A stretch of DNA of 64,000 bases from a virus (Duplodnaviria > Heunggongvirae > Uroviricota > Caudoviricetes): IMG/VR virus record IMGVR_UViG_3300031134_000466; one strand, given 5' to 3'. Made by a program: the position numbers and the translations under genes. The notes under the pieces are model-generated. The model made no database searches. It was not told the DNA's origin and saw only the letters and a program-made list of their open reading frames with translations. How positions within the stretch are numbered: position 1 is the stretch's first letter; each line of letters starts with the position of its first letter. Shown piece by piece: positions 18,430-63,973 of the stretch.

Positions 18430-21147
18430 ATGGCCACCCTCATCGGCGTATCAGGAAAAATTGCGTCAGGTAAAGATTACTTGACTGACAAGCTTGTAAA
18501 CGAACTGAAACGTCTTGGTTTTACCATCGACTACACAGCCTTCGCTGCACCCCTGAAGCAGGAACTCAACGAAATCATCTCTCTGATTCGAGCTTTCCCT
18601 GAACAGGATGAACTGACTCTTTCTTTCTCCATCGCTCGTAATCTGGACATCAACTACGATGATGCTCTTCTGATTGCTACTAATCTGAGAACAGAAGTGC
18701 TTGCAGATGAAACTCTCAACGGTTACTCACGAACAGTCAAAATTCGTGAATCTCTTCAGTATCTTGGTACAGAGATTCGCAGGAAGCAGCGTCCTGAATA
18801 CTGGACTGACTTGTTCTTGAACTTCGTCAACAATTCAGAAACAGATTTCATTTTCGTTTCAGATGCACGTTTTCCTAATGAAATGGACACGGTTGTCGAC
18901 AATCAAGGTGTTGCTCTACGTCTTGACATTCCAGAAGAAGTTCTTGCAGAGCGTCGAAACAAGCGTGACGGCATCAAATACACTGATGAGCAGTTGAATC
19001 ATATCTCAGAAACTGCACTGGATGATTACACCAAATTTGACATGATGATTGGTGTGCAGTTCAACGAACGTGAAATCGTAGAGAATATCCTGAAAAAAGT
19101 TGAACGACTTCAGGAACTTCCTGCAAAAGCTTCTCGCGTCCTGAAAGCCAAAATCGCAGAGCATACACCTTCAGTGTCAGATAAGAAAGATGTTTACCCA
19201 GAGGTGAATTTACCTGAAGGCCAGTACAAAGTGTTGTCTTTGTTTGCAGGTGCAGGTGGATTAGATTTAGGTTTTGAGTTAGCTGGATTAGAAGCAGTTC
19301 ACGGTAAAGAAAAAGTGGACGCTGCTTACAAAGACAAAAAAGCATTTGACGAGCTCCGCAAAGAGAACCTCATTCACACGGTCTACGTAAATGACAACTT
19401 CAAAGATGCAATAGCTTCCTACCGTCAGAACTTTCCTGAAACGTTTATTGACGAACGAGATATCAAAAAAATCAGCAGCTTCCCTGATGCAGACCTTCTG
19501 TTAGGTGGATTCCCTTGCTTCCCTAAAGGAACAGGTGTAGCTACAGAGACAGGTTACAAAAACATTGAAGATGTCGAGAAAGGTGATTTTGTTCTCACTC
19601 ATGAAGGTCGTTACCGTGAAGTAACAGACACCATGACACGCAATGTGAACAAATCAGCCACTCTACATGCTTACGGTTCTCTTCCTTTGGTCTCAACGGT
19701 GAATCATCCTTACTGGGTGAAAGAAACTGTCGATTCTGAACCTAAATGGGTTCATGCTGAGAACATTCAGCCAGGTTGGTTTGTGTCTCATCCAATCAGC
19801 ACATTCAGTACAGATGAAGTAACCGAAAAAGAAGCCAAGTTTGCTTACTTAGCCGGCGTCTTCGCTCAGTGTGGTACAAAAACTTTGAACGACGAGCACA
19901 AGCCAAGCTATCTCACTCCTTACAATGATGAGGAGTTCCTGGCTTTGCTGGCTGAAATTGATGCTGTCTGTTCAAAAGAAGGCAAAAACGTCATCGTCCA
20001 CAGTGAACAGCTGAACAAGATGATGAAATTGTTCGGAACTACCAAATGGAACAAAGTCATTCCTGAAGAGGTCCACCAGAAACCACGAGCTTGGCAGAAA
20101 GCTTTCCTTGACGGCTTCCTGTTCCACAACTCTGACCAGGAAGTGCACAGCAAGAACTTGGCTGTTGGCGTGGCTCGAATTATTCGTAGTTTGAACCCTA
20201 CACAGGATGTTATCGTGTCCTCACCCAAATACAGTTCCTGGATTGTAACTGCAACTGACACTACCGTAGCTCATCATGATGACAACTATGTATGGGTTCC
20301 TGTGGAGCGTTTGCAAGTAAGAAACGAAATGGGAGTACTTCCTGTTTACGATATTACTGTAGCCGAAGACGAATCATTCGTAGCAGATGGATTTGTAGTT
20401 CACAACTGCCCTGGCTTCTCAGCAGCAGGTCTTCGCATGTTAGATGACCCTCGCAACTTCCTGTACCTGCATTTCGTACGAGCTGTTGTTGACGCTCAAC
20501 CAAAGATTTTCGTAGCAGAAAACGTAAAAGGTCTACTCACTCATGGTCAAGGTGAAGCTTTCAACCAGATAGTCGAAGACTTTGCAGCAGCAGGTTACAC
20601 CATCTACTACAAGCTGATGAAAGCAATTCAGCATGGTGTACCTCAGATGAGAGAGCGATTGATTATTGTTGGTGTGCGAAACGACATTGATTTTGAATAC
20701 CAGCATCCTGCTGCCACTCATGGTGAAGGTCTACTTCCATACAAAACTCAAAGAGACGCTTTCTACGATTTGAGGGACCTGAACGATGAACACTACGAAG
20801 GAGACTTCTCTTCTCGCTACCGTTCCAGAAGGTTCAAACTGGACTGGGATGTACCGTCAAAGACCATTTTGGCAACAGGGCGGCACCTGCCTTTGCACCC
20901 TGACGGAGTGCCTCAGGAGAAGCTGGAGCAGGACTTGTGGAGTTTAGACGCTGCAGACCGTAGATTCACTGTAAGAGAAGCTGCACGAATCCAGACATTC
21001 CCTGACTGGTATGATTTCGTGACAACCTCTCGCGGAACAACCAACACAGTCCTGGAGAAACAGTACCGTCAGATAGGTAACGCTGTTCCTGTCGAACTGG
21101 GACGAGTTGTTGCTGAACCTATTGTTCAGTTCCTGAAAAGTCTGTAA
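18430..21147 (+). CDS. dNMP-kinase-like P-loop domain fused to DNA (cytosine-5) methyltransferase, interrupted by an intein
   Basis: 905 aa. N-terminal 'GVSGKIASGKDY' and 'VSDARFPNE'. MTase motif I 'LFAGAGGLDLGF', IV 'GGFP|C..', VI 'ENVKGL', X 'GNAVPV'. Confidence 0.85.
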   Translation: MATLIGVSGKIASGKDYLTDKLVNELKRLGFTIDYTAFAAPLKQELNEIISLIRAFPEQDELTLSFSIARNLDINYDDALLIATNLRTEVLADETLNGYSRTVKIRESLQYLGTEIRRKQRPEYWTDLFLNFVNNSETDFIFVSDARFPNEMDTVVDNQGVALRLDIPEEVLAERRNKRDGIKYTDEQLNHISETALDDYTKFDMMIGVQFNEREIVENILKKVERLQELPAKASRVLKAKIAEHTPSVSDKKDVYPEVNLPEGQYKVLSLFAGAGGLDLGFELAGLEAVHGKEKVDAAYKDKKAFDELRKENLIHTVYVNDNFKDAIASYRQNFPETFIDERDIKKISSFPDADLLLGGFPCFPKGTGVATETGYKNIEDVEKGDFVLTHEGRYREVTDTMTRNVNKSATLHAYGSLPLVSTVNHPYWVKETVDSEPKWVHAENIQPGWFVSHPISTFSTDEVTEKEAKFAYLAGVFAQCGTKTLNDEHKPSYLTPYNDEEFLALLAEIDAVCSKEGKNVIVHSEQLNKMMKLFGTTKWNKVIPEEVHQKPRAWQKAFLDGFLFHNSDQEVHSKNLAVGVARIIRSLNPTQDVIVSSPKYSSWIVTATDTTVAHHDDNYVWVPVERLQVRNEMGVLPVYDITVAEDESFVADGFVVHNCPGFSAAGLRMLDDPRNFLYLHFVRAVVDAQPKIFVAENVKGLLTHGQGEAFNQIVEDFAAAGYTIYYKLMKAIQHGVPQMRERLIIVGVRNDIDFEYQHPAATHGEGLLPYKTQRDAFYDLRDLNDEHYEGDFSSRYRSRRFKLDWDVPSKTILATGRHLPLHPDGVPQEKLEQDLWSLDAADRRFTVREAARIQTFPDWYDFVTTSRGTTNTVLEKQYRQIGNAVPVELGRVVAEPIVQFLKSL
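19516..20406 (+). mobile_element. class 1 intein (297 aa) with degenerate LAGLIDADG-type homing-endonuclease insert
   Basis: Starts 'CFPKGTGVATETG' and has block B 'TVNHPYWV'. 'YLAGVFAQCG' and 'FLDGFLFHNSD' are LAGLIDADG-like. Ends 'VYDITVAEDESFVADGFVVHN' followed by the +1 Cys of 'CPGFSAAG'. Confidence 0.85.
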
Positions 21148-26356: not shown

Positions 26357-26365
26357 TGCTATAAT
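26357..26365 (+). promoter_or_regulatory. extended -10 (TGCTATAAT), leaderless PARP transcript
   Basis: TATAAT lies 6 nt upstream of ATG 26372. Confidence 0.6.
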
Positions 26366-26371
26366 AAGAGC

Positions 26372-34403: not shown

Positions 34404-35891
34404 TTAGCCTACGAAGGTTACTCCAGTAGTGGTTCTGTCATACTGTGTCCATGTTGTTCCGTTGGATGGTCCATAGAAATGGGTAGTCAAACTACCTGTC
34501 TTTGTATCAAACTCCAGAGTTCGTACAGGGTTGGTGGTGTTTGAATGGAATGTTCCCAGGTAAGAAACAATCTTGTTGCCGTTCACTCCCACATCTTCAC
34601 GGTAACCAGCTTCACCGACATGGCCAGATAAGACAACTTTGATGTTTGGGTACTGCTTGACAAGGTTGTCATACACATACTGAGCTGAGTTACTTCCATA
34701 ACTGGCTGACTGGTCAATACTTCCATCACCGTTCAAATACGAATGAGTGGAAACAATAACATTGTAGTCAGGATGTGCAGCTACGACAGTTTTTGCCCAG
34801 TCAACGACCTCAGTGCGTGGCCAGAGTTCCAGAGTCAAAACCAACCACTTTTTGTCAGCAGCGTTGAAAGTCTGGTAAGCATTGTCAACTTTTCCAGTTT
34901 CGAAGGTTGTGATACCTGGGTAACGTGAAGGACTGAAGTAGCTATTGAAAGTGGTGGTGTTTCGCACTAAAGTGCGAGTGTTCTTAGGGTCAGCAGCAGA
35001 ACCGCCAACACCTACAGCAGCTGTATCATGGTTTCCGATGGTAAGAGAATTCTGGATTTTGTTGTCATCTAACACCTTCATGGCTTTGGATGCAACAGCG
35101 TACTGTTCGTGATTTGGAGTATCCCAATTGACGACATCACCAGTATGGTTCACATATCGCAAATCTAAAGCGTTTTTGTTATCAACAAGCCATTGTGTAC
35201 GGTTCACAAATCGAGTGTCTGTTCCAACTTCTTGTTGGGTGTCTGGAATCACAGCCATTGTGAACTTGCCGTCAGCATCAGCAGGATTTACTGGCGGAGT
35301 TGTTGGTGGTGTAACAACAGGGGAAGGTTTAGCTCCGTAGAATGAGATTCCTTCGGCTGCCCAGCCGGCTGTTGTCAGGGCAGTTCTTTCGGCTTCAGTT
35401 GTCGCATAACGATGCTTACCACTTTTTTGGAAACGGTAGACTGGTTGGCTGCCAGAAAGGTTTTTGGTTGAAGCGTAGAAATTGATTCCTTGCTCTGTGT
35501 AACCATATTTACTTTGGGCAACGGCAAGTTCATTAGAGGAAGAAGATTTTGCTATCCAGATGAAATCGCCGTTCTTGTGAAGACGGTAGACTGGCACTAA
35601 CCCTGTTTTTTGGTCGTGGTTAGCTTTGAAAACAATCCCTTTGGTTTCTGTGAAGCCATAGCTGTTTTTAGCACTGTCAATTTCTTTTGAGTTGACAGTG
35701 AGTAGATTAGCTTGGCTTTTAGGGTTGATTGACTGATAAACATCTGTCGTCATTGAAGACAGAATAGATGCATCAGAGGGAGCGGTCGCAGCTGAAGCGG
35801 ATGTAGCTGTAGCGAAAGGTAGAACAAGTGTAGCTAATAGTACGACGCCTAAAGTCCTAAATCGGACAGGTTGCGTTTGATTGTGGTTCAC
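34404..35891 (-). CDS. secreted metallophosphoesterase with N-terminal repeat (DUF5648-like) modules
   Basis: 495 aa. Signal peptide 'VLLATLVLPFATATSASA'. Repeats 'YRLHKNGDFIW..GINFYAS' and 'YRFQKSGKHRY..GISFYG'. 'HTGDVV', 'GNHDTA', 'LSGHVGE'. GTG start with an AAAGGGG RBS. Confidence 0.75.
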   Translation of the reverse strand: MNHNQTQPVRFRTLGVVLLATLVLPFATATSASAATAPSDASILSSMTTDVYQSINPKSQANLLTVNSKEIDSAKNSYGFTETKGIVFKANHDQKTGLVPVYRLHKNGDFIWIAKSSSSNELAVAQSKYGYTEQGINFYASTKNLSGSQPVYRFQKSGKHRYATTEAERTALTTAGWAAEGISFYGAKPSPVVTPPTTPPVNPADADGKFTMAVIPDTQQEVGTDTRFVNRTQWLVDNKNALDLRYVNHTGDVVNWDTPNHEQYAVASKAMKVLDDNKIQNSLTIGNHDTAAVGVGGSAADPKNTRTLVRNTTTFNSYFSPSRYPGITTFETGKVDNAYQTFNAADKKWLVLTLELWPRTEVVDWAKTVVAAHPDYNVIVSTHSYLNGDGSIDQSASYGSNSAQYVYDNLVKQYPNIKVVLSGHVGEAGYREDVGVNGNKIVSYLGTFHSNTTNPVRTLEFDTKTGSLTTHFYGPSNGTTWTQYDRTTTGVTFVG

Positions 35892-35979: not shown

Positions 35980-36441
35980 TTAATACTCTGTACGCAGCTG
36001 ATACTCGCCCCAAGTCGTGAAAGGCTGAACAGAATTGTCCAGGATAATTCGTTCAGCAACATCACCAGATGCAAGCTTCTCATAAAATGCTGCATCGTCA
36101 AAACCAGCATTCGCCGCATCATAACGGTCAGCAGAAAACACAATACGGTCAACACGAGACCATAAAGCAGCACCTAAACACATAGGGCAAGGTTCACAGG
36201 ATGAATAAAGAACACATCCTTCCAGGTTGAACACTTTAGCCTTGGCACAAGCAGCCCTAATAGCATTCACTTCCGCATGAGCGGTAGGGTCAATCGTGGT
36301 GGTGACAGAGTTTCCCGCAGCAACCGTGCTGCCGTTAGGGAAAAGGATTACAGCCCCAAAAGGTCCACCATTGCCGCTTTCCACGTTCTTTACAGCTGTA
36401 TCAATAGCAAGCTTAAGATAGTCAGCGTCGTTCATATTCAA
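35980..36441 (-). CDS. CDA-fold nucleobase/nucleoside deaminase, GuaD (guanine deaminase)-like
   Basis: 153 aa. 'GGPFGAVI', 'DPTAHAEVNAIR', 'CEPCPMCLGA', 'GFDD'. Confidence 0.7.
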   Translation of the reverse strand: MNMNDADYLKLAIDTAVKNVESGNGGPFGAVILFPNGSTVAAGNSVTTTIDPTAHAEVNAIRAACAKAKVFNLEGCVLYSSCEPCPMCLGAALWSRVDRIVFSADRYDAANAGFDDAAFYEKLASGDVAERIILDNSVQPFTTWGEYQLRTEY

Positions 36442-36509: not shown

Positions 36510-36518
36510 TGTTAGAAT
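36510..36518 (+). promoter_or_regulatory. extended -10 (TGTTAGAAT), near-leaderless
   Basis: TAGAAT lies 8 nt upstream of ATG 36527. Confidence 0.55.
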
Positions 36519-36526
36519 GAATCATC

Positions 36527-37519
36527 ATGCTTACAGTCTCCTCTTCCCTGAAAAGCTATAAAGCGTCAGGGTTATTCTTTGGGAGTCTACTACTCATACT
36601 GGCAGCGTTTGCTCTACTCCCTAAGAAGAGCTTCACTGGGTTGCTGAATGATTTCTTCATGCTTAGCTTCAGTGTGATTGTTGAATCTGTGCCGTTCTTG
36701 ATCCTGGGTAGCGTCCTTGCTGCACTGGTGCAAATTTTTGTCTCGTTTACCTGGCTGACAAGAATACTCCCTAACAACCCTCACCTGAAACGCTTCTTCC
36801 TGTCATTGTTCGGTGTTTTCTTACCGGTATGCGAATGCGGGAACATTCCTATGGCTCGGGGACTGATGCTAAAAGGATTCACTGTGTCAGAAGCAATGGT
36901 CTTTTTGCTCGCTGCACCCATTGTTAACCCTGTCACCATAATCACAACCCATCAAGCTTTTGGATGGGATTCAGGCATCCTCATTTGCCGTATTTTAGGT
37001 GGACTTGCCATAGCGAACTTCATTGGCTGGCTCTTCTCCCGCCAACAAGATGCAACCCAGTTTCTCACCCCTTCATTCGAACATTCATGTCGAGTTGAAG
37101 CAGGCGTTGTAGAAAAGAAAAGCATTTTCAACATAGCAAACAAAACAGCCTCGGAGCTGATCCTTCTATTCCCAGCTTTGATCGTGGGTGCAGGCATTGC
37201 TGCGTTCATTCAAGTGATTGTACCGAGGAGTACATTGTTAGCCATTGGTGAAGACCCAGTACTCTCAGTTCTTGTTATGCTCCTACTGGGAATCATCGTA
37301 GCAATATGTTCAAACGTGGATTCATTCTTTGCTCTATCATTCGCTAGCACTTTCACGAATGGAAGCCTCATCACATTCCTTCTGGCAGGTCCCTTAGTCG
37401 ATGTGAAGATGATCGCATTGATGAAATCCACTTTCACATCCAGAGCTGTCCTATATATTGTACTACTGGTGGTATGTGCCAGCGTTAGCATTGGGTTAGG
37501 AGTCAATCTTGTCTCTTGA
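36527..37519 (+). CDS. DUF318/YcgR-type permease
   Basis: 330 aa, polytopic. Signature 'CECGNIPMARGL'. Confidence 0.7.
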   Translation: MLTVSSSLKSYKASGLFFGSLLLILAAFALLPKKSFTGLLNDFFMLSFSVIVESVPFLILGSVLAALVQIFVSFTWLTRILPNNPHLKRFFLSLFGVFLPVCECGNIPMARGLMLKGFTVSEAMVFLLAAPIVNPVTIITTHQAFGWDSGILICRILGGLAIANFIGWLFSRQQDATQFLTPSFEHSCRVEAGVVEKKSIFNIANKTASELILLFPALIVGAGIAAFIQVIVPRSTLLAIGEDPVLSVLVMLLLGIIVAICSNVDSFFALSFASTFTNGSLITFLLAGPLVDVKMIALMKSTFTSRAVLYIVLLVVCASVSIGLGVNLVS

Positions 37520-38231
37520 TAAGATAACTAAAACCCTACAATGGGTGACACTTGCAGTAACTATGAGCTTCATCCTCTGGCTCATATTCACAGGTAAGCT
37601 GTCATTGTTCATTCATCCTCGATATAACCTCTTCACCGCCATCATGGTTATTCTGGGAGCAGCTTTAGTGACAATAAGCTTTACTAAGAAGCAACCTTCA
37701 GGACATGAACATCAGCATGATGAGAAAAAGAACCCAAAACAGAAGCTGGTGATTGCTGCAATCGTTTTGGTAGCCACTTCCAGCATGTTCGTTGTCGCCC
37801 CAGGAGCTTTATCTTCCACCTTTGCTTCAGATAAAGTTGTCAACGGAGGGGTAGTGTCCACAAATCAAGACCTTGCTAATCCTGAAGGAGACTACCAAGA
37901 TTTTACTGTCAAAGACTGGGCTTTACTTGCCGAATCTGACATCAAGTATGAGTTCACAGGAAAAGAAGTCGATTTAGTAGGATTTGTTGTTCCCATTGAT
38001 GAAAACAATTTCTACTTGTCTCGATTTGTTGTGTACTGCTGTGCTGTTGACGCCCAACCAGTTGGTGTGCCAGTACATCAAGAGAATTGGCAGCAAGATT
38101 TCCAAGAAAATGATTGGGTTGAAGTGAAAGGGGAGTTCAGTGATACTACAAGTAACAGCGGTTATCAAGCTGAGCTCATCCCTGTTCGTGTTACTAAAAC
38201 TGTAGAACCAGAGGCTCCTTATGAGTACTGA
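37509..38231 (+). CDS. TIGR03943/DUF1980 (YcgQ-like) membrane protein
   Basis: 240 aa. Two N-terminal TM segments, His-rich loop 'SGHEHQHDE', C-terminal 'VVYCCAVDAQPVGV'. Overlaps the permease gene by 11 nt. Confidence 0.65.
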   Translation: MSLDKITKTLQWVTLAVTMSFILWLIFTGKLSLFIHPRYNLFTAIMVILGAALVTISFTKKQPSGHEHQHDEKKNPKQKLVIAAIVLVATSSMFVVAPGALSSTFASDKVVNGGVVSTNQDLANPEGDYQDFTVKDWALLAESDIKYEFTGKEVDLVGFVVPIDENNFYLSRFVVYCCAVDAQPVGVPVHQENWQQDFQENDWVEVKGEFSDTTSNSGYQAELIPVRVTKTVEPEAPYEY

Positions 38232-39276
38232 ACAAACCAAATCTCAGCATAGTCTAAACCGCAGTATAGTGGTGTCATTGTTACTCGTCCTGGCGTTAGT
38301 TGCTGCTTTGTTCGTCAAAGATGGCATCGCTCAGCAAACAAAAGTAAACAATGTTGACGGCTACTATTTAGCTGATTCCTCTTTCTACCATCAAAAAGGA
38401 ACCAACCCAGGTGAGGAAGTCTACTCTGGTCCAGAGTCAATTCTTTCTTTTTCATTGACTCATTCACATGCGTTACTCGTTACCTCTGCCCAGAAGATAC
38501 TACTTGTAGATTTAGCTTCAGGTAAATCTGAGGACATCACTACTCCTGGTTGTTCTGTACTTCAGACCAGCTCTGCATTCGACAGGTATTTTGTGTACCT
38601 AAACTCTTGCGATACAGACACAACAGCCCAACGTTTTGTTTCATATGACACTCAAACGAATAAGGAAACAACAACAGAAGTACAAGCATCCTCACAATGG
38701 CAAGTGAACCCTAAAACAGGAAACGTTGTATACCAGGCTGGTTTGACCAGTACTGTTTATTCAGGAAACATGGATAAGTCTGGCCAATGGCAACCGTTTG
38801 TGCAGTTAGGTCAGATGGGTTATCTCGGAGGTTTCTACAACAAAGGGAACACTTTGTTCTTATGGGGAACCGAAGCTGATGCTTCAACCCCAATCTCGTA
38901 TAACCTAAACGACTTGAATACTGTGAAGCTAGTTTTACCTGAAGCTGCAGATTCTAAAACACAGATAGCGTCAGGAACAACTGCTATTGATAGAACCAGT
39001 ATTTTGTGGGCTGTGACCGCTTATTCTCCAGAAGAAGATGCATATTACGAGTACGTCATCAAAGACACAAATCTTGGAGCTACTTTACTGGTTGACTTAT
39101 CTACTCTCGGGTATACGTTAGGTAACCGATTATCGTATGATGCAAAGAATGATGTAGTTGCAATTCCGGTGACACAGTACAACGGCGGGGATGTGTCTAC
39201 ACTGTTTGCTGATGCAGAAACAGGAAAAATTCTTTACCAGTTGCAGTTCACTACAGCGTTTCAATTTGCACCTTAA
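38221..39276 (+). CDS. membrane-anchored/secreted protein of unknown function
   Basis: 351 aa. N-terminal TM segment 'IVVSLLLVLALVAALFV'. Overlaps the upstream gene by 11 nt (third gene of the operon). Confidence 0.55.
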   Translation: MSTEQTKSQHSLNRSIVVSLLLVLALVAALFVKDGIAQQTKVNNVDGYYLADSSFYHQKGTNPGEEVYSGPESILSFSLTHSHALLVTSAQKILLVDLASGKSEDITTPGCSVLQTSSAFDRYFVYLNSCDTDTTAQRFVSYDTQTNKETTTEVQASSQWQVNPKTGNVVYQAGLTSTVYSGNMDKSGQWQPFVQLGQMGYLGGFYNKGNTLFLWGTEADASTPISYNLNDLNTVKLVLPEAADSKTQIASGTTAIDRTSILWAVTAYSPEEDAYYEYVIKDTNLGATLLVDLSTLGYTLGNRLSYDAKNDVVAIPVTQYNGGDVSTLFADAETGKILYQLQFTTAFQFAP

Positions 39277-39328
39277 ATTATGAAAGCCGACCCGACAGAA
39301 ATTCTTTGTCAGGTCGGCTTTCATAATT
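39276..39328. terminator. bidirectional hairpin
   Basis: 22-nt arms aattatgaaagccgacccgaca / tgtcaggtcggctttcataatt (1 mismatch). Confidence 0.8.
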
Positions 39329-40449
39329 CAGTCAGCAGTTTTTCCGTTCAAGTTCCAGAATGGCTTCTCAAACTCAGGCTGAATCATTTTCCAGATGATG
39401 TCAGAGATTTTCTTCTCAGACCTGGTATCAAAATGACCTCCGCTGTGACGAGAGAATAACAAACCAGTAATGCGTTTGTCTTCTTTCTGTACAGCTGCAG
39501 CGTAGTCCTTCTGAGTGTATCCTTCAGGAAGTTCAGAAAGAATACGGTTGTAAGTTTCCTCAACTGTTGCACGCAATTCAGCATGCTCTGCAAGTAGTCG
39601 GTCACGAGTTGTTTCGACATACTCAACGAACTCATCAGGGAGACCAACAATCCATGAAGTGAAGTCACCGTCAGCTACAAGCAGCTCCCAGATGCGACGC
39701 GAAGAAGCACCTGTGATGACACGGTGAAGCTGAACGTAGTCATCCTGTTTCACTTTCACTCGAACATCACTATCCAGGAAGTGAACAACAACGCCTTCTT
39801 TGTTCTCACGACCAGGAGCGGCCAAAGCTTCAGTAAGGCTGTTGTATTCAAACTGCTCAACCTTCAACCAAGTCCATTCATCAACCTGTGATGCTGGTAC
39901 AGAGCGACCTGTTGCTGTGTTCACTCGGGCAATCAAGATGAGGTCATCCAAATCACCGTAGTTAACAACGATACGGTTTGTAGGGTAGATGATTTCCCAG
40001 ATGTAAGTTTCACCAGCAAGTGGCTCCCATTTTCCGTCGTACAGCTCCTGGTAACGTGCTGTGGCATGCAGAGCCTGCTCAGAGCTGAATGAACCTCGTG
40101 TGGAGATGTTCAGTCGACCAGTTTCAGGGTTTACATATGAAACACCCATAGAACCATCTGCTTTGTCTGTGACAACGATAGGTCCAGTCAGTGCATCCTG
40201 AGGAACATCTGGTTCGCCGTGGTTAAAGAACTTACCAAGAGGGCGGGAGACAATCTCCTGGGTGGAACCGTCAACGATAAGTCCTCGTGAAGCTAATGTT
40301 GCAGCGTTCCAGGCTCGGTCAAACTGGCATACCTGTGAGTAGTCAAAGATAGCCAGGTCAAGCGTAGGGTGAACCTGACGATTGATGTGCTTGTTCTGGA
40401 ATTCAGCTGCCCAAAGTTCAGCAGGAGCGATATCGTAAATGTGTACCAT
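39328..40449 (-). CDS. ATP-dependent RNA ligase, paralog A
   Basis: 373 aa. Motif I 'TDKADGSM', 'WEIIYPTNRIVVNY', IV 'NKEGVVVH', V 'VRVKVK'. Confidence 0.75.
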   Translation of the reverse strand: MVHIYDIAPAELWAAEFQNKHINRQVHPTLDLAIFDYSQVCQFDRAWNAATLASRGLIVDGSTQEIVSRPLGKFFNHGEPDVPQDALTGPIVVTDKADGSMGVSYVNPETGRLNISTRGSFSSEQALHATARYQELYDGKWEPLAGETYIWEIIYPTNRIVVNYGDLDDLILIARVNTATGRSVPASQVDEWTWLKVEQFEYNSLTEALAAPGRENKEGVVVHFLDSDVRVKVKQDDYVQLHRVITGASSRRIWELLVADGDFTSWIVGLPDEFVEYVETTRDRLLAEHAELRATVEETYNRILSELPEGYTQKDYAAAVQKEDKRITGLLFSRHSGGHFDTRSEKKISDIIWKMIQPEFEKPFWNLNGKTAD

Positions 40450-41293: not shown

Positions 41294-42706
41294 ATGCCAA
41301 TTGGTCAAAAAATTGTAGGAGTAGCTGTAGCAGCTACAGTTTCATTAAGTGCGGTAGCTTTTGTGGCTTCTCCAGCACTTGCTGATGAGGCAGCTCCTAC
41401 GACAACACAAGACGTTCCTACGGAAGTAGAAACTGGGACTGAGGGAGTTGCTCCAGCAGCTGACCCTGTTGAGGAAGAAGTACCTGCTCCTGAGGTTGCA
41501 GTACCAGAAGAGACTGAACCTGAAGTAGTTGTTCCATCTGAAGAAGCACCAGTAGAAGAAGTACCTACTGAAGAAGCACCTGTTGAAGAAGTTCCTGTCG
41601 AAGAGGTCCCTGCAGAGGAAAATGCTTTGGTAGCAACAACATTTGCTTTGACTTTTGGTGGTGACACATCAACTGTTCCTGAAAACCTGACACTTGAAGT
41701 TCACTATACTTCTTTGGTGAATGATGAAGTGCAGGATAATGTTGTTTACCTAACCCGCGATGTCCCTCCTACTGCCATTGACATCCCTGAAGGTTCTACA
41801 GTTCAGGTTTCAGTAACTGGTTTACCTGACATCGAAAACACAACACTAAACCCAGTTGTTCTGCTCAATGGGAATCCTTTGCCTGCTGATGGTGTTACAT
41901 TAGTGTCTGGTGAAGTGTATGATTTTTCTGTAGCTATTGATGCAGTAACAGAAAACCCTGCACCTTCAGACGCTCCTGCTATTCAGCAGGATGAAGCTCT
42001 TCCTGTTGATGTAGAAAACCTTATTTCTGTAAATGCTGCAGTTGCTTTCCCTGGTGACACTATAACTGTTTCTGCTTCAAGCGTTGCTACTCCTGAATCT
42101 TGGGTTTCAGTATGGCTTCATTCCACTCCTGTGCTTCTCGCTGGTTGGGTTCAGACTGACGTGAATGGAAACATTGATGTCACAATTCCAGCAGGTACCG
42201 AAACTGGTGAACACCGTATTGTTGTGTCTGACGCAGACAACAACATTGTAGGTTGGACAAGCATTCTTGTTGTCAACCAGGATGATGAAGTTATCGTTCC
42301 TGGAGAAGACCCTGAAACCCCTGTAGACCCTGAAACGCCTACAGACCCTACCCTTCCTGTGGACCCTACAACTCCTACTGACCCAGAAGTGCCAGTTACT
42401 CCTACAAACCCAGATGCAGGAGTAACTCCTGAGACTGAACCAGAAACAACTCCTCGTGACCCTTCTTCTGGCGGAGTATCCATCATTCCTGAGGAAGAGT
42501 TCAACACTGGAGGTTACGACAATGATGAGTTGGGTAACGTAACAGACCGTGGTGACCGCTCAGACATTAACACCAGAGCTTTGGCTTACACTGGTTCTGA
42601 CTCCAACTCCACGGTGTTCCTCACCTTCATGGGTGGTCTCATGTTGATTGGTGGTTTCGTCCTCCGCAGACTTCCTCGTCTGCGTGCTGCACGTCGCAAT
42701 AGCTGA
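41294..42706 (+). CDS. cell-wall-anchored surface protein with LAxTG sorting signal
   Basis: 470 aa. Signal peptide ending 'SPALA|DE', acidic Pro/Glu/Val repeats, Pro/Thr repeats, and C-terminal 'LAYTG' + TM segment + 'RRLPRLRAARR'. Confidence 0.85.
   Translation: MPIGQKIVGVAVAATVSLSAVAFVASPALADEAAPTTTQDVPTEVETGTEGVAPAADPVEEEVPAPEVAVPEETEPEVVVPSEEAPVEEVPTEEAPVEEVPVEEVPAEENALVATTFALTFGGDTSTVPENLTLEVHYTSLVNDEVQDNVVYLTRDVPPTAIDIPEGSTVQVSVTGLPDIENTTLNPVVLLNGNPLPADGVTLVSGEVYDFSVAIDAVTENPAPSDAPAIQQDEALPVDVENLISVNAAVAFPGDTITVSASSVATPESWVSVWLHSTPVLLAGWVQTDVNGNIDVTIPAGTETGEHRIVVSDADNNIVGWTSILVVNQDDEVIVPGEDPETPVDPETPTDPTLPVDPTTPTDPEVPVTPTNPDAGVTPETEPETTPRDPSSGGVSIIPEEEFNTGGYDNDELGNVTDRGDRSDINTRALAYTGSDSNSTVFLTFMGGLMLIGGFVLRRLPRLRAARRNS
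41468..41624 (+). repeat. low-complexity (E/P/V) repeat region in the surface protein
   Basis: 'EEVPAPEVAVPEETEPEVVVPSEEAPVEEVPTEEAPVEEVPVEEVPAEE'. Confidence 0.7.
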
Positions 42707-50744: not shown

Positions 50745-50774
50745 TTTGACAGCTGGCTGGGTTTCATGGTAAGT
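50745..50774 (+). promoter_or_regulatory. -35 TTGACA / 18 nt / -10 TAAGTT (TGGTAAGTT)
   Basis: Upstream of the Pnkp gene. Argues against the track's TTG 50774 start. Confidence 0.55.
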
Positions 50775-50800
50775 TGGAGTATCTTAAGTTAGGAAACAAA

Positions 50801-51706
50801 ATGTCACAGATAATGCGGATTCACCGTGGAGTGCAAGGCTCTGGTAAATCCACAGAAGCCATCCGTTGGGTGAACCAGGACCCGTTAAACCGTGCCCGTG
50901 TGAACCGTGATGACATTCGTCTCAGCCAGTTCGGCTCCTACGAGCTTCCTCAGGAACTCGAAGTTGCTGTTACCAAAGTAGAGCATGCCATCATCACCGC
51001 ACTTCTTGCTGCACGCAAAAGTGTTGTTGTTGACAATGTGAACCTGAAAGCCAAGTACGTTAAAGAGTACCTGCTTATTGCGGAGAAAGCCAACGTACCT
51101 GTTGTGCATCAGGACTTCCCTGTGGAGTTGGAGACAGCTCTTGCTCGTAACGCTGCTCGTGACCGTAAAGTCCCTGCACATGTGATTGAGACAACATTCA
51201 AGCGTTACATTCAGAGTGGCAAGTTCCCTCCGTTCCCCGTACTTGACTACGAAGCCGCTGCAGCAGGAATCTATGTTCCTGATGAGACTCTGCCTAAAGC
51301 TATCCTTTTGGATGTTGACGGCACAGCCATGAAGATGGGTTCACATCGTGGACCGTTTGACTGGCACAAAGTCATTGATGACGAGCCTAACCCGCCTGTT
51401 GTTGAAACAGTAAAAGCTTTGCATGCTCAGGGCTACAAAGTTGTTGTCATGTCTGGTCGTGATGAAGTCTGCAAAACAGACACGTTACTTTCTCTGGAAG
51501 TAGCTGGTGTTCCTGTGGATGAAATCTACATGAGACCCCACAACGATTACCGTAAAGACAACATCATCAAGCGTGAACTTTTTGATGCTCACATTCGGGA
51601 GCGTTTCAACATCCTGTTAGCTTTGGATGACCGGAACCAGGTTGTGGACGCTTACCGTCGTGAGCTGGGTCTTCCTGTCTTTCAGGTTGACTACGGAGAC
51701 TTCTAA
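50801..51706 (+). CDS. polynucleotide kinase-phosphatase (Pnkp): P-loop 5'-kinase + HAD 3'-phosphatase
   Basis: 'HRGVQGSGKST' and 'LLDVDGT', 'VVMSGRDE', 'ALDDRNQVV'. AGGAAA RBS. Confidence 0.8.
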   Translation: MSQIMRIHRGVQGSGKSTEAIRWVNQDPLNRARVNRDDIRLSQFGSYELPQELEVAVTKVEHAIITALLAARKSVVVDNVNLKAKYVKEYLLIAEKANVPVVHQDFPVELETALARNAARDRKVPAHVIETTFKRYIQSGKFPPFPVLDYEAAAAGIYVPDETLPKAILLDVDGTAMKMGSHRGPFDWHKVIDDEPNPPVVETVKALHAQGYKVVVMSGRDEVCKTDTLLSLEVAGVPVDEIYMRPHNDYRKDNIIKRELFDAHIRERFNILLALDDRNQVVDAYRRELGLPVFQVDYGDF

Positions 51707-51757: not shown

Positions 51758-52729
51758 TTAAATTTCTCGCAGCTGCACAATTGTCAGTTCAGTTGCTTCA
51801 CCTTTTTTATTGACCCTTTTGACTTTCACATCATTAGCAACAACTTCGAATTTTGCACCACGAGGAATGATGAACTCATACTCTCTTGGACCTTGCGATG
51901 AAATAGCTGTGATTGGGGCTCCACTTTTTGTAAGAATCTGTAAAGAAACATTGATGTTGTCTTTGGAAGGTAAATCTTGAGGATTCAAACTTGTCGATAA
52001 GAAGAATTTAGGTTCGTAAGTGCTACCAACAGGGAAATGTTTGTCGAGGTTTTGAGCGTCATCACTTGAATGATATCCTTTTTCATCATAAAGATGATGA
52101 CGGCGGTAAACCATCACGCCTTCTTCTGCTGGTTCGTGTTTAGCAAAAGCATCATCCAGGATAGTTACAGCTGCATCCAACGTTTCAGGTGCAACATTTT
52201 TTGCGTACGGATTTGTTGAAGCTGAAAGATGGCCGTTGATGTCAGCATAGCCATCTTCTGAATACCAGCGAAGAGTAGCTATTTCAGTATCATCCAGTTT
52301 GGCACTCCAGTTTTGGGAATCTGCCATGCTGTTCAACAGGTCAGCATGTTTGTAATGCATCTCTTCAAGAGTGTCACCAGTTTCGAAAAACGTCGGAGAA
52401 GTGTAAGCAGCTTTTTGTGCTTTTTTGTGGGTGATGACTTTACGATCCGCAACAGCAGCTAATCTTCTGGCTCGTTCTTGAGAAAGCGCTTCGTATTCTT
52501 CTGCATGCCATTCCTGCGTTGGATTCTTTTTGATCTGTCTTTCCAAAGACTTTAGATAAGCTGGTGTTAGTTTGTACTCTGCTTCAGCTTTTCTTCTTAC
52601 CGCTATTAGCTTCTCAAGCTCTGGGTCTTTGCGGTTGTCCATGAAAGCACTGAGAACCGCTTGATGAGCTTTAGCGTAGGTGGCTGCAGCATGAGCTGAA
52701 CAACGGGGACCAGGTTTTGGGTAACACAT
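51758..52729 (-). CDS. R-S-ExE ADP-ribosyltransferase 3 with N-terminal C-x7-C-x2-H module
   Basis: 323 aa. 'MCYPKPGPRCSAHAA' is identical to the ART 2 N-terminus. 'VMVYRRH', 'LSTSLN', 'REYEFIIPRG'. Confidence 0.7.
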   Translation of the reverse strand: MCYPKPGPRCSAHAAATYAKAHQAVLSAFMDNRKDPELEKLIAVRRKAEAEYKLTPAYLKSLERQIKKNPTQEWHAEEYEALSQERARRLAAVADRKVITHKKAQKAAYTSPTFFETGDTLEEMHYKHADLLNSMADSQNWSAKLDDTEIATLRWYSEDGYADINGHLSASTNPYAKNVAPETLDAAVTILDDAFAKHEPAEEGVMVYRRHHLYDEKGYHSSDDAQNLDKHFPVGSTYEPKFFLSTSLNPQDLPSKDNINVSLQILTKSGAPITAISSQGPREYEFIIPRGAKFEVVANDVKVKRVNKKGEATELTIVQLREI

Positions 52730-54121: not shown

Positions 54122-55363
54122 ATGTCAACTACAAGAAAACCTCCTTATCATCACAGCGATGGTACAAACTGCTGGACTAAAGATTGTTCGATCAGAGGCC
54201 GTGAAGATACAGAAAAAGCTGCTTTCTTCAAGCAAGTAGAAACAGCTGCTGAGACTGTTGTTCCAACCAATGAATTGCCTCCTCTGTCAGCTTTTCAGAA
54301 AGCCTATGATGATGGTCGCATTGAGTGCAGCCGCCACCCTGAACATCCTTATGTGACTTACAAGTATTCCAGAACAACTCAGTTTGCTTCTGACTGGGAT
54401 GATGTGACCTTAGCGTCTCGTGGTGTCATCTTCAATGAGGAGACAGGCGAGATTGTTGCTCGTCCATTTGCTAAGTTCTTCAACCATAACGAACCGTCAG
54501 TTCCCAGAGACAAATTACATGGCCGTATTAGTGTAACTGACAAGCTGGACGGTTCTTTAGGAATTGGTTATGTTGATGAGAACGGTAAGTTCAACATTGC
54601 AACCTCTGGAAGCTTTATCTCTGAACAGGCAAAACGTTCTACAGAGCTCTATCATGAGCGTTATGAAGGCAACTGGAAGCCAAATCCTAAGTTGACCTAC
54701 ATGTGGGAAATCATCTACCCAGAAAATCGTGTCGTGGTCAACTATGGCGATGAAGATGACTTGCATCTCATCGGTGCTGTCAACAAACGAACTGGTAAAT
54801 CAGTTCCGTTGCGTGACATCAAAGAATGGAAGTGGAAAAGAGCTGAAGAGTACAAAGACTTCTCCTCCTTGGATGCTGTTCTTCACTCTCCTGAAAGAGA
54901 AAACCGTGAAGGTTTCATTGTTCATTACATCGATACTGATACCCGCGTGAAATACAAGCATGCAGATTATCTTGAGCTCCATCGTAACCGTACTGGCGTG
55001 ACTTCCAAAACTATCTGGCGTAAAATGCGTATGGGTGAAGATATGGCAGGTTGGAAAGAGAACATGCCTGAAGAGTTCAGTGAGTTCGTATCCACTCGTC
55101 AAGCTAAAATCACTGCCGGATATAACAAAGAAATTGCCCAAATTACTGATGAGCATGGCACTTTCAAAGCAACTCTTCCTGCTGGTTATGACCGTAAGAC
55201 TTTTGCTACCACTTTGAAAAACTCACCTCTTGTACCAGCCGAAAACAAAGCTTTCGTCATGAACCTTGAGTTCAACGGCAGTGCTGTTGGAAGTGTTGTT
55301 CAATCTCATAAGATTTGGGACCGTGTGAAACCTGAGGACGAGAACACCTTGTGGAACATGTAA
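54122..55363 (+). CDS. ATP-dependent RNA ligase, paralog B (with Cys-containing N-terminal extension)
   Basis: 413 aa. 'TDKLDGSL', 'WEIIYPENRVVVNY', 'NREGFIVH', 'TRVKYK'. Collinear with paralog A. Confidence 0.75.
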   Translation: MSTTRKPPYHHSDGTNCWTKDCSIRGREDTEKAAFFKQVETAAETVVPTNELPPLSAFQKAYDDGRIECSRHPEHPYVTYKYSRTTQFASDWDDVTLASRGVIFNEETGEIVARPFAKFFNHNEPSVPRDKLHGRISVTDKLDGSLGIGYVDENGKFNIATSGSFISEQAKRSTELYHERYEGNWKPNPKLTYMWEIIYPENRVVVNYGDEDDLHLIGAVNKRTGKSVPLRDIKEWKWKRAEEYKDFSSLDAVLHSPERENREGFIVHYIDTDTRVKYKHADYLELHRNRTGVTSKTIWRKMRMGEDMAGWKENMPEEFSEFVSTRQAKITAGYNKEIAQITDEHGTFKATLPAGYDRKTFATTLKNSPLVPAENKAFVMNLEFNGSAVGSVVQSHKIWDRVKPEDENTLWNM

Positions 55364-55746: not shown

Positions 55747-56412
55747 ATGAAGAACACATACGGAATTCTCGGCGGATATGGGGCGGTAGCCACCCTACAT
55801 CTCCAGCAGCTGCTCGTGAAGCGAGTCCTCAGCACTGGACAGTACGCTGATATTGCCTTCCCTCGTATGGTAATTTCCAATCTGCCTGAAGACATCATCA
55901 ATGCTGAAGGACATATCAGCAGCCTTGGTAGCCTGCGGACTGAACTTGGTAAAACAGCTCCTCTATTCCAAGGAGCCACAGATGTTTATGTCATTTGTAA
56001 CACCTTCCATGTCGAAGAAGAGTTCATGCAGCGAGTCTTCGCTAACAAACTACATTCTGTTCCGGCTTTAACCAGTCAAGCTGTCGTAGATGCTGGATAC
56101 TCCAAACCTCTTATCGTAGGTTCCAAGCTGACTTCTCAGGATAACCTGTACAGTCATACAGCTTACACCTCAACTAACATGTTTGCGGATGAGCTAATCA
56201 CTGCTGGAATGAAGTACCAGACATCTCACTCTCAGCTGGCAGATGTCATAGCTGCTGCCAAACAGGCTAGCTCAGACTGCATTGTTTTAGGTTGCACAGA
56301 TTTGTCCGTGATGGCTGACACTCTCCGAACCATGACTGCACTTCCCGTAATCGACTCCGTTGAAGCAGTCGCCAACCATATTTACAACTCCCATACGAAA
56401 GATGAATCGTGA
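55747..56412 (+). CDS. Asp/Glu/hydantoin racemase-superfamily enzyme (two-Cys type)
   Basis: 221 aa. 'YGILGGYGAVAT', 'VYVICNTFH', 'IVLGCTDLS', 'PVIDSV'. Confidence 0.75.
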   Translation: MKNTYGILGGYGAVATLHLQQLLVKRVLSTGQYADIAFPRMVISNLPEDIINAEGHISSLGSLRTELGKTAPLFQGATDVYVICNTFHVEEEFMQRVFANKLHSVPALTSQAVVDAGYSKPLIVGSKLTSQDNLYSHTAYTSTNMFADELITAGMKYQTSHSQLADVIAAAKQASSDCIVLGCTDLSVMADTLRTMTALPVIDSVEAVANHIYNSHTKDES

Positions 56413-57374
56413 AAGTCTACAACGACACAGTAACCATGACTGCAGAGCTGGCTCAGACCTTAGAGCAATTGAGAGCTGTGCGGGCTTTTGACGCTACAGA
56501 ATGGATTGAGCGTAAGGTTGTCCTAATCAACCAGTACTTCGCTCAGAACAAGCTCTCAGGGGCTGTAGTAGGTGTTTCTGGTGGCATCGACTCAGCTGTA
56601 GCCCTTTCACTTCTTGTCAAAGCATCCCAGCAAGACAACAGCCCAATTCAGAAGATTGTCCCTCTTCTACTTCCTGCTCTTTCTTACGAAGGTGCAACTA
56701 ACCAAGACGGGGCAGTTCAGCAGGCTACTGACCTATGCCAGAACCTTGGACTGAAGCCAGCTGTTTTCACTAAGCTCACATCTCTTTCCCAAGTGATTAC
56801 TTCTGAACTGGAAGACATTCTGGACATCAAATCAACAGACTGGGCTAAAGGACAGCTAGTGGCTTACACCAGAACCCCAGTCCTGTACAACACCTGCTCA
56901 ATCCTTACTGACGCCGGCTACCCTGCACTGGTTGTAGGAACCACAAACCTTTCCGAAGGTGGATACCTCGGTTATGTCGGAAAAGCTTCAGATGGTATGG
57001 TTGACCTGCAAGTAATTTCTGATTTGTACAAGTCAGAAGTGTACAAAGTCGCAGCTTTACTTGAAGTTCCTGAAAGCGTTATGAAAGCTACTCCTACAGG
57101 GGACATGTACGACGGTCGTGAAGATGAAACAGTTTTCGGAGCTTCTTACGACTTCGTAGAGCTGTTTCATCTATGGCTACAGGCACGCAGCGTCCCATTG
57201 AAACTTCTTCGAGATGCCCACTTTGTCACAGGAGCTAAAAACCTGCAAAAACTGCACGACTACAACGCACATAAGTACACCTACGGAACTCCATCCATTC
57301 ACCTGGACATTATGAACGCAGCAATCCCAAACGGATGGAACAATCAGCCTTGGAGGCCCCAGAATGGCAACTAA
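56409..57374 (+). CDS. divergent NadE-family PP-loop amidotransferase (NAD or NMN synthetase-like)
   Basis: 321 aa. 'GVSGGIDSAV', 'VVGTTNLSEGGYLGYVGKASDGMVD', 'ATPTGDMY..EDETVFGASYDFVE'. GTGA overlap with the upstream stop codon. Confidence 0.7.
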   Translation: MKVYNDTVTMTAELAQTLEQLRAVRAFDATEWIERKVVLINQYFAQNKLSGAVVGVSGGIDSAVALSLLVKASQQDNSPIQKIVPLLLPALSYEGATNQDGAVQQATDLCQNLGLKPAVFTKLTSLSQVITSELEDILDIKSTDWAKGQLVAYTRTPVLYNTCSILTDAGYPALVVGTTNLSEGGYLGYVGKASDGMVDLQVISDLYKSEVYKVAALLEVPESVMKATPTGDMYDGREDETVFGASYDFVELFHLWLQARSVPLKLLRDAHFVTGAKNLQKLHDYNAHKYTYGTPSIHLDIMNAAIPNGWNNQPWRPQNGN

Positions 57375-61575: not shown

Positions 61576-61584
61576 TGGTAGAAT
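61576..61584 (+). promoter_or_regulatory. extended -10 (TGGTAGAAT), leaderless
   Basis: TAGAAT lies 6 nt upstream of ATG 61591. Confidence 0.6.
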
Positions 61585-61590
61585 AGTTAA

Positions 61591-62238
61591 ATGAACACCA
61601 TCCAGTTCCACGCCCAACACGGTGAAGACCCAAACACTGTAACTATTCAGCCCAGTGAAAGTAGCAAGTTTGCTGACATTATCAACAATATAGGTAAAGC
61701 TTTTCTTCAGCCTGCCTGGAATCAAGACATCCTTCGTAAAGCAATAGCAGCAGAGAACTCTCTTTCGCAAGAGACAAGAGATATAGTGCGCTGGGCTGAA
61801 CAGTTCACCACTAAGTTCAATAACAAGGAATTCAACCTTGTTGTAGAAGAGCAGGTATTGGATAGTTACAGTATCAACTTGAACACAGTGCAAAGCGTTG
61901 GCAACAACAGTATGAAACTCCTTGCCAGGCTTCACCATGCGACCCGAATGTGGATTGCTGTAGAAGATACAGACTGGGTAGCAGATATCATCCAAGATGC
62001 CCACCCCGACATCTTTCAGAAGGACAAAGGCTGGCTGGATGTCATCAATCTTCTCAGACAGAATCATGCTGTCCCTGTCATTGTCACCAGTAATAACAAC
62101 AGTTGGAATTGGAACACAGATAAGGCTGAAGAGTTGACGTTTGAACAGCAGCTCACTCCGCACACATGGGAAAGTTACATGTATGGGCACGGATATGATG
62201 CATTGGCAGTCGTTCGAAAACTTTCTCAAAGGAAATAG
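61591..62238 (+). CDS. hypothetical protein
   Basis: 215 aa. Preferred over the antisense 218-aa ORF, which is Cys-rich and has no promoter. Confidence 0.6.
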
Positions 62239-62268
62239 TCACAAAAACGTGCTTTTTCGTCAATATGA

Positions 62269-62277
62269 CGATATACT
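62269..62277 (+). promoter_or_regulatory. -10 element (CGATATACT)
   Basis: 35-nt leader with an AAGGAAGG RBS before ATG 62313. Confidence 0.5.
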
Positions 62278-62312
62278 GTAATAAGAATGGTCTAAGGAAG
62301 GAAACCCGTATC

Positions 62313-63636: not shown

Positions 63637-63665
63637 TTGACTTACTTTCAACTGAATGGTAGAAT
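63637..63665 (+). promoter_or_regulatory. -35 TTGACT / 17 nt / -10 TAGAAT (TGGTAGAAT), leaderless
   Basis: TAGAAT lies 5 nt upstream of ATG 63671. This best-formed promoter argues against the track start at 63656. Confidence 0.65.
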
Positions 63666-63670
63666 CAGAT

Positions 63671-63973
63671 ATGACTATCAATATTGCTATTAACAGTCCC
63701 CTTACCGAGAACTATTCTTTGGATCAGAAGAACGCTTTAGCTAAACAAATTCTTGCTTTGATTGAAGCCAACAAAATCGATTTTGTCACCACTGTTGGAG
63801 AAGCTCGTCCTTACATTGGTCGGAATATCAGCATGTGGAGTTTTTCTGGGAACGATATTGAAGGTGTCCTGGAGCAGGTTGGATTCTCCGCTCAGGATAA
63901 TCGAGACTACGTTGTCGTAGACGGTAAAACTCATTACACTATCAAATCTTTCCCTATTACTGTAAAGCCTTAG
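63671..63973 (+). CDS. hypothetical protein
   Basis: 100 aa from ATG 63671. Confidence 0.5.
   Translation: MTINIAINSPLTENYSLDQKNALAKQILALIEANKIDFVTTVGEARPYIGRNISMWSFSGNDIEGVLEQVGFSAQDNRDYVVVDGKTHYTIKSFPITVKP

Follow-up and report, generated by a model that had tools for sequence, protein, structure and literature searches.

Positions 36527-39276 of a 64,000-nucleotide stretch of viral DNA (IMG/VR record IMGVR_UViG_3300031134_000466, Caudoviricetes; the whole stretch is hereafter called the window) hold three overlapping open reading frames (ORFs). We read them as a three-component inner-membrane module for metal transport that was taken once from Microbacteriaceae-like hosts by very large actinobacterial phages or phage-like elements and kept under selection, and we give this reading a probability of roughly 0.45. 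ORF1 encodes a PF03773 permease, ORF2 a TIGR03943/DUF1980 protein, and ORF3 a membrane-anchored protein. Consecutive genes overlap by 11 nucleotides (nt), at 37509 and 38221, exactly as an initial annotation of the sequence had placed them. The genes are as follows.

36527-37519, plus strand: ORF1, 330 amino acids (aa), ATG start
37509-38231, plus strand: ORF2, 240 aa, TTG start
38221-39276, plus strand: ORF3, 351 aa, ATG start

The permease and its partner

For the first two products, profile searches upheld the family names of the initial annotation. ORF1 matched PF03773 (ArsP_1, formerly DUF318; TC 2.A.119) with E=1.7e-59 and 201.8 bits, against a cutoff of 32.3, and covered positions 2-290 of the 294 in the model. 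Its best NCBIfam matches were the SO_0444 Cu/Zn efflux family (89.7 bits, cutoff 300) and SaoE (70 bits, cutoff 325), and ORF1 is outside both of these characterised subfamilies. ORF2 scored 145.6 bits with TIGR03943, for which the equivalog cutoff is 88.8, and both DUF1980 domains matched (PF09323 with 49.1 and PF21537 with 56.4; cutoff 25.9). In every locus from which the upstream ORF was extracted (L004, L008-L010, L012, L015 and 16 genome loci), the ORF2 gene lay directly 3' of a PF03773 gene. No relative of ORF1 or ORF2 was detected in the PDB by sequence search.

The motifs quoted in the initial annotation are all present, with CECGNIPMARGL at ORF1 residues 102-113, SGHEHQHDE in an ORF2 loop and YCCAVDA at ORF2 residues 175-181. 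The positions that bear on metal handling are the following.

36830-36838, plus strand: C-E-C of the invariant motif PVCECGN.P..RG (ORF1 residues 100-112)
37307-37321, plus strand: invariant motif CSNVD.FF (ORF1 residues 261-268)
37698-37724, plus strand: Lys-flanked His-rich loop SGHEHQHDE (ORF2 residues 64-72)
38037-38042, plus strand: invariant CC pair in the C-terminal domain (ORF2 residues 177-178)

PVCECGN.P..RG, C188 and CSNVD.FF were invariant in all 23 phage and actinobacterial ORF1 homologues (23/23). The hydropathy profile of ORF1 has about 8-9 hydrophobic segments, and each half of the protein has one Cys motif, which fits the 4+4 repeat that is the architecture of the family (PMC7176098).

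Near its N-terminus ORF2 has three hydrophobic segments, the first and second of which are separated by a stretch with an invariant HPRY. Residues H36, P37, R38, Y39, C177, C178 and D181 were invariant in the 14 aligned homologues (14/14), and the C-terminal end has a P..PY motif of which the terminal PY is invariant. The loop between segments 2 and 3 varies in sequence and is rich in His, Asp or Glu in most homologues, with DEDHEHHDADHEHDD, DHDHDHDH and DHDHDHDHDH as examples; because lysines flank it, we infer that it is cytoplasmic. A match of the ORF2 ectodomain to DUF3299 was sub-threshold (E about 0.03, in 3 of 14 members), and this kinship was set aside as too weak for use, a lead only. 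ORF2 is 33-41% identical to its nearest cellular relatives, and the nearest named homologues belong to Microbacteriaceae.

The third subunit

The initial annotation regarded the third gene as an unusual extra partner, and this does not hold. A survey that scanned one genome per species and took the 80 best cellular loci found a third gene on the plus strand, in the same frame offset and starting within the end of gene 2, in 73-74 of the 80. These bacterial third genes encode an N-terminal hydrophobic anchor. A profile built from 73 of the bacterial proteins matched ORF3 with 39.2 bits and E=1.4e-13 (8 targets) over residues 63-319, a region outside the membrane anchor, and it also matched six other phage-type ORF3 proteins. 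An earlier comparison of the phage ORF3 family with the Agromyces third genes alone was not significant (E=0.019). The phage proteins are 337-357 aa long against 420-510 aa for the bacterial ones, and the phage form lacks a membrane-proximal domain of about 120 aa between anchor and propeller. By this profile match, ORF3 is the phage form of a conserved, unnamed third subunit.

ORF3 itself had no match in Pfam or NCBIfam, nor in the PDB by sequence. No family member reached E<0.01 against Pfam, where the WD40, YncE, PQQ and TolB-type propeller models were unmatched. The initial annotation had described a protein of unknown fold, a description now superseded by structure prediction. An AlphaFold model from the single sequence was poor, with a predicted local distance difference test score (pLDDT) of 42, whereas the model made with six family members reached a pLDDT of 88 and a predicted template modelling score (pTM) of 0.82. 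This model has one long N-terminal helix followed by about 28 strands, and ORF3 is confidently predicted to comprise one N-terminal transmembrane helix and a seven-bladed beta-propeller. Fold searches with the model returned generic propellers only, with no specific family.

The propeller would face outward on the extracytoplasmic side, where ORF3 is probably a structural partner rather than a metal site. The term "exported" in the initial annotation needs adjustment: the N-terminal anchor and the extracytoplasmic location stand, but "membrane-anchored" is the better word. The family is small and fast-evolving. An exhaustive search found 5 clusters among 1.84 billion representatives, a word-indexed homology search gave a 95% twin as the sole match, and phage relatives share 21-29% identity.

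Bacterial relatives and their zinc-gene neighbourhood

The 80 best cellular loci came almost entirely from Microbacteriaceae, including Rathayibacter, Cryobacterium, Plantibacter, Agromyces, Leifsonia and Clavibacter. The 11-nt ATG....TGA overlap of genes 2 and 3 was present in 33 of the 80. The usual context comprises ndk, VKOR, rne, the operon, DUF4031, rplU, obg and proB; in L024 and about 15 other Microbacteriaceae loci, the operon is fixed between rne and rplU-obg-proB, with VKOR near.

A ZnuA gene was found within 6 kb of the operon in 8 of the 80 loci, and the chance of meeting one in a random 12 kb segment is below 1% by rough estimate. In Plantibacter (L086) and a metagenome-assembled genome (L089), a co-directional array runs through znuA, an ABC ATPase, an ABC-3 permease, a Fur-family regulator and ORF1-ORF2-ORF3; a Zur-like palindrome precedes the array in L086 and was not detected in L089. 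Homoserinibacter (L085) and Protaetiibacter (L070) have znuA and the operon in divergent orientation, and the intergenic region that the two share contains TGATAATGATTGTCA. In a Leucobacter locus (L047), the Zur-like box GTGAGAACCGTTTTCAC stands at -34; L062 has a Zur-like box and znuA-znuC after the operon. Because several different arrangements were found, the linkage of the operon to znu and zur genes is judged to have arisen more than once. ZnuA-family proteins can also carry manganese.

The metal handling that the initial annotation had suggested from Cys and His motifs is thus better supported, since the Cys motifs are invariant, the loop is His-rich, and znuACB, a Fur-family gene and Zur-like boxes lie near relatives. 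Taken together, the Cys motifs, the His-rich loop and the znu/Zur context point to zinc or a similar metal. The search for metal-regulator sites that it proposed gave a divided outcome: znuACB, the Fur-family gene and Zur-like boxes were found in several Microbacteriaceae, and the phage copies have no Zur box.

Phage-type relatives, selection and descent

Two contigs of about 33 kb in the European Nucleotide Archive (ENA) encode operon proteins identical to those of the window. A copy with 88-94% identity, L004, lies on a contig of 782,326 bp (JGI 3300056892, Ga0540663_0000001). The same three-gene module, with the same junction, was found in L004, L009, L008, L010/L011 and L015, and the guanine-cytosine (GC) content of these loci is 35-50%; L010 (JGI 3300055143) is a contig of 617,315 bp with 35% GC. 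Between the window and L004, the ratio of nonsynonymous to synonymous substitution rates (dN/dS) was 0.039 for ORF1, 0.071 for ORF2 and 0.092 for ORF3. On these ratios, the operon genes are real and under strong purifying selection.

In a neighbour-joining tree of ORF1, the phage-type copies formed one clade apart from the bacterial copies, with 43-50% identity between the phage clade and bacterial ORF1. A single old acquisition followed by long retention fits these data, because the phage copies form one clade, are under selection and are widely conserved.

Two Logan contigs (L003 and L005, 8307-9299) seemed to carry an ORF1 pseudogene, which proved to be a gene-calling miss, as the DNA is identical to the intact L004 copy. 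In both, a spurious minus-strand ORF had been called over the permease gene, an artefact that could mislead presence/absence surveys.

The initial annotation had called carriage on a phage-like element unusual, and the database searches agree. The operon DNA matched none of the 50,697 phage records in INPHARED. The ORF1 protein matched only 8 unannotated records there, at 29-32% identity and mostly short Listeria or Enterococcus "phage" fragments. We rejected these as phage relatives and take them as host carry-over; the same record series has a host-like DnaK. Scans of IMG/VR with ORF3, with ORF2 and with an ORF2 alignment found nothing, and no credible equivalent of a phage-borne module emerged from either collection. 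Carriage on a phage-like element is thus plausible and rare.

Expression signals of the operon

The initial annotation had also proposed a near-leaderless promoter, and the element is there, with equivalents in relatives. The signals around the three genes are as follows.

36510-36518, plus strand: extended -10 element TGTTAGAAT, 8 nt 5' of the ORF1 ATG
37498-37502, plus strand: ORF2 Shine-Dalgarno AGGAG, within the ORF1 3' end, 6 nt 5' of the TTG
38210-38214, plus strand: ORF3 Shine-Dalgarno AGAGG, within the ORF2 3' end
39276-39328, no strand: hairpin of 53 nt with a long perfect stem, between the convergent ORF3 and RNA ligase genes

Unlike ORF2 and ORF3, whose Shine-Dalgarno sites are at normal spacing, ORF1 lacks such a site, and its mRNA is predicted to be leaderless or to have a leader of 1-2 nt. 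There is no good -35 element before ORF1, and the promoter is thus not called by a simple promoter/terminator scan. The same element is identical in L004 (TGTTAGAAT) and reads TGGTATACT in L009 and TGCTATAAT in L010. The core TGNTANAAT is not enriched overall in the window (8 copies against 8.5 expected), and four of the 8 copies stand 5-8 nt before an ORF ATG, at 26357, 36510, 61576 and 63657. Chance placement of four of eight sites this near an ATG is very unlikely. The carrier element seems to use extended -10 promoters and leaderless or near-leaderless mRNAs generally, and such mRNAs are a habit of Actinobacteria. The three sites other than that of the operon lie at 26357-26372 (before a WGR-PARP gene), 61576-61591 and 63657-63671, with TGNTANAAT 5-6 nt before the ATG.

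The start position of ORF2 is kept in relatives, with ATG there in L010. The ORF2/ORF3 junction, AACCAGAGG..CCTTATGA.TACTGA, is kept from the phage contigs to an actinobacterial contig of 72% GC. The hairpin at 39276-39328 folds with -33.8 kcal/mol (z=-11.0), and none of 200 shuffles was equally stable. Hairpins occur at the equivalent place in L004 (with compensatory changes), L009 and L010. The element has no clear U-tract, was not seen by the simple scan, and is probably a bidirectional terminator that closes the operon. Because the genes overlap, no internal terminator was found within the operon, and the hairpin directly follows ORF3, the three genes are likely to be co-transcribed.

Upstream, the divergent neighbour is a zinc-type cytidine/dCMP deaminase gene (35980-36441, minus strand), and further upstream lies a gene for a secreted DUF5648-metallophosphatase protein (34404-35891, minus strand).

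Proposed function

In the mechanism that we propose, ORF1 would be the translocating permease, with a 4+4 helix repeat and an invariant Cys/acidic motif in either half. ORF2 would add three membrane helices, the cytoplasmic His-rich loop and an extracytoplasmic domain with the invariant Cys-Cys. ORF3 would be a membrane-anchored propeller on the outer face; it is read as a scaffold or gate for the ORF2 ectodomain, not as a metal binder, because it has no conserved Cys or His. The substrate would be zinc or a similar thiophilic divalent metal; other PF03773 members have zinc and copper phenotypes (bioRxiv 10.1101/072470) or, by their NCBIfam names, handle organoarsenicals. Uptake is the favoured direction because bacterial operons sit in znuACB-zur loci behind Zur-like boxes and because the domains face outward. 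The phage copy would carry its own extended -10 leaderless promoter in place of Zur control, so that production of the transporter in an infected cell would not depend on zinc status. The data suggest, at the level of a proposal, the formation of a complex, its topology, substrate and direction, the timing of expression and the benefit to the phage. The most specific form of the proposal, in which a megaphage lineage installs its own three-subunit zinc importer uncoupled from host Zur, and thereby a virus-encoded complete metal-uptake permease, we hold to be rather doubtful.

Several points weigh against metal uptake by a phage-borne module. In no TIGR03943 system has transport or binding been measured, and the characterised PF03773 relatives are exporters; ORF1 is far below their equivalog cutoffs. 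The topology of the operon proteins is read from hydropathy and charge distribution only. The ORF3 family offers no conserved metal ligands, with neither Cys nor His conserved. A lone ORF3 homologue (30% identity over about 180 residues) lies at 8001-9104 of L013 (ENA ERZ27228646), a contig of 696,453 bp on which ORF3 is the only member of the module found. The zinc link is carried by about 10% of the bacterial loci, the usual housekeeping context has no Zur-like box or metal signal, and the Zur box consensus that we used is a general one, not a curated matrix. No Zur-like box precedes any of the phage copies (for the window operon, even the closest 7-1-7 match in the upstream DNA differs at 6 positions), and the phage copies have no znu neighbours. 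Finally, the phage identity of the carrier is favoured, short of proof.

At the L013 locus, no permease or DUF1980 gene adjoins the ORF3 homologue, and a tRNA-Leu gene is present.

Alternative functions and the nature of the carrier

The module might instead export a metal or metalloid, as an ArsP- or SO_0444-like detoxification system that shields infected cells where metals abound. Every PF03773 protein characterised so far is an exporter, the best NCBIfam matches of ORF1 are the SO_0444 and SaoE families, and paired cysteines suit soft metals. A Shewanella DUF318 gene adjoining ZntR is required for zinc tolerance (bioRxiv 10.1101/072470), and COG0701 permeases accompany ArsR regulators on Arthrobacter mobile elements (PMC6305408). 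However, ORF1 scores far under the equivalog cutoffs (89.7 against 300 and 70 against 325 bits), and the ORF2 ectodomain and the propeller look like capture components more than efflux parts. The linkage seen in relatives is with znuACB-zur and Zur-like boxes, typical marks of uptake genes, rather than with ArsR, MerR or ZntR regulators. On balance, export seems less likely than uptake, although it is a serious rival.

A second question is whether the carrier is a phage at all. The window could be chromosomal DNA of a bacterium with a small genome, for instance an actinobacterial symbiont akin to Saccharibacteria, in which case the operon would be an ordinary chromosomal transporter. The related contigs reach 617-782 kb, and the operon also occurs on three contigs that binning had assigned to Candidatus Saccharibacteria, of which one has 904 kb. 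The window also encodes DnaK, a Wzy-like protein and a sortase-type LAYTG surface protein, a pilin gene occurs in L010, and no capsid, portal, terminase or tail gene was found among the proteins scanned, a gap that also counts against the reading of a phage-borne module. However, the 64 kb held no tRNA and no Rfam match, and no ribosomal protein was found among the approximately 43 window ORFs scanned. The window also has genes of phage type: a dNMP kinase-methylase split by an intein, an exonuclease of the RecE/YqaJ kind, ADP-ribosyltransferases resembling Alt, and a polynucleotide kinase and two RNA ligases of T4 type. Many of its ORFs could be placed in no family, and published phages of 634-735 kb likewise encode DnaK. 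In the ORF1 tree, the operon copies from the Saccharibacteria-binned contigs do not group with the phage clade, and their gene 3 is of the long bacterial form. We therefore favour a huge phage over a cellular genome by about three to one, and the small-bacterium chromosome is an improbable account of the data. Should the large related contigs prove to be phage genomes, the one of 782,326 bp would be longer than the 735 kb records of the phage collection (LR756501).

The three Saccharibacteria-binned contigs (L072, L081 and L094) have a GC content of 0.47-0.48, and the largest has 903,931 bp. Near the operon they carry a kinase-phosphatase-RNA ligase fusion, RadC and DnaJ genes. They may be true Saccharibacteria, mis-binned elements or transfers from actinobacterial hosts.

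It is less likely still that the module is unrelated to metals and moves or senses another envelope-related substrate, serving the phage in envelope remodelling or superinfection exclusion. In B. subtilis, ycgQR is controlled by envelope-stress extracytoplasmic function (ECF) sigma factors, and S. mutans mutants show acid sensitivity (PMC5584981). In bacteria the operon most often lies among housekeeping rather than metal genes, ORF3 evolves as fast as surface proteins in conflict do, the ORF3 homologue of L013 stands alone, and the window encodes several further surface or membrane proteins. This account leaves unexplained why each of the two repeats of ORF1 has an invariant Cys pair and why ORF2 has the CC motif and the His/Asp-rich loops, as well as the repeated and independently arranged znuACB-zur linkage. 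Non-functional passenger DNA is ruled out by the dN/dS values together with the deep conservation across relatives.

Other genes of the window

The window has a GC content of 45%, with genes on mixed strands. It encodes an SNF2-type helicase, a ribonucleotide reductase small subunit, a RecE/YqaJ plus RNase T exonuclease, and a short DnaB-like protein, besides DnaK. Further loci of interest are listed below.

5837-6619: ABC transporter ATPase
6620-8191: directly following gene, 523 aa with about 10-12 hydrophobic segments
18430-21147: 905-aa ORF with a dNMP kinase-like N-terminus, a Hint/intein segment and a C-5 cytosine DNA methyltransferase
26372-27676, 28539-29579, 30500-31465, 51758-52729, 56409-57374 and 62265-63158: genes related to nicotinamide adenine dinucleotide (NAD)
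39328-40449 (minus strand), 50774-51706 and 54122-55363: T4-style RNA repair set
41294-42706: 470-aa Pro/Glu/Thr-rich protein with a signal peptide, a C-terminal LAYTG, a hydrophobic segment and an Arg-rich tail

The pair at 5837-8191 may be a second transporter on the element. The RNA repair set consists of two RNA ligases and a polynucleotide kinase, and the kinase is closest to those of Streptomyces phages of about 130 kb (44-47% identity). The NAD-related genes are dense and comprise a WGR-PARP protein, three or four ADP-ribosyltransferase-like proteins, including an Alt-like one, and two NAD synthetase-like proteins. The protein at 41294-42706 has the look of an LAxTG-type sortase substrate, a class found in Actinobacteria.

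Comparison with known systems

Homologues of the ORF1-ORF2 pair are ScfAB of group A Streptococcus, SMU.746/747 of S. mutans and YcgRQ of B. subtilis, whose function is stated to be unknown and which are known from fitness, acid-stress and ECF-sigma data only (PMC5584981). By YcgR we mean the permease of B. subtilis; in E. coli the name belongs to a PilZ protein. Our literature search found no paper assigning a substrate to the PF03773/TIGR03943 pair. Like the window operon, these systems have two overlapping genes of the same families in the same order. Unlike it, the streptococcal operon is bicistronic (PMC5584981), whereas the phage operon has a third coupled gene that shares the terminator. 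The phage-type operon also differs from ScfAB and YcgRQ in its phage-like carrier and its leaderless extended -10 promoter, and the nearest cellular relatives of the window ORF2 are actinobacterial, not Firmicute.

The closest likeness is to the three-gene operon of Microbacteriaceae, which has three homologous genes in the same order, the same frame for genes 2 and 3, a recognisable junction and the same Cys motifs. Its gene 3 has the extra 120 aa or so, whereas the phage copy is without the Zur-like box and the znu neighbours and belongs to a separate clade.

With ArsP and the SO_0444 proteins, ORF1 shares membership of PF03773 and probably the 4+4 repeat (PMC7176098), but those are single-component exporters, and ORF1 always occurs with a TIGR03943 partner. 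ArsP has a cysteine pair in a membrane helix, and ORF1 may resemble it in this. The likeness to Zur-regulated accessory zinc uptake systems such as ZnuABC and ZrgABCDE lies in the bacterial relatives: in some, a Zur-like palindrome heads an array that includes znuACB, a Fur-family regulator and the operon. DUF3299, to which the ORF2 ectodomain shows its weak match, is the family of ZrgE (PMC9817125). Unlike these systems, the phage operon has no ATPase, no classical substrate-binding protein and no Zur box.

Among phage auxiliary transport genes, the cyanophage pstS is a host-derived uptake component. As with pstS, a host-derived uptake component would here be phage-borne and under phage expression signals; unlike pstS, which is a single binding protein, it would be a whole multi-subunit membrane permease.

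Significance

Both protein families were known. What appears new, in the databases and literature searched, is the propeller third subunit, the znuACB-zur linkage and the retention of the module in giant phage-like genomes. The PF03773/TIGR03943 pair occurs widely among Gram-positive bacteria, and group A Streptococcus needs it for fitness in tissue. The repeated joining of the actinobacterial form to znuACB-zur yields a concrete zinc-acquisition hypothesis for the family. If true, zinc acquisition would be the first functional assignment for the ScfAB/YcgQR family, which is needed for streptococcal virulence. The third propeller subunit changes which genes belong together in assays of the actinobacterial and phage systems. 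Purifying selection has preserved a whole transporter in giant phage-like genomes that differ greatly from one another (GC 35-50%), which suggests that control over its metal supply is important to the infected cell. This is further evidence that the largest phages remodel the physiology of the host and do not merely replicate.

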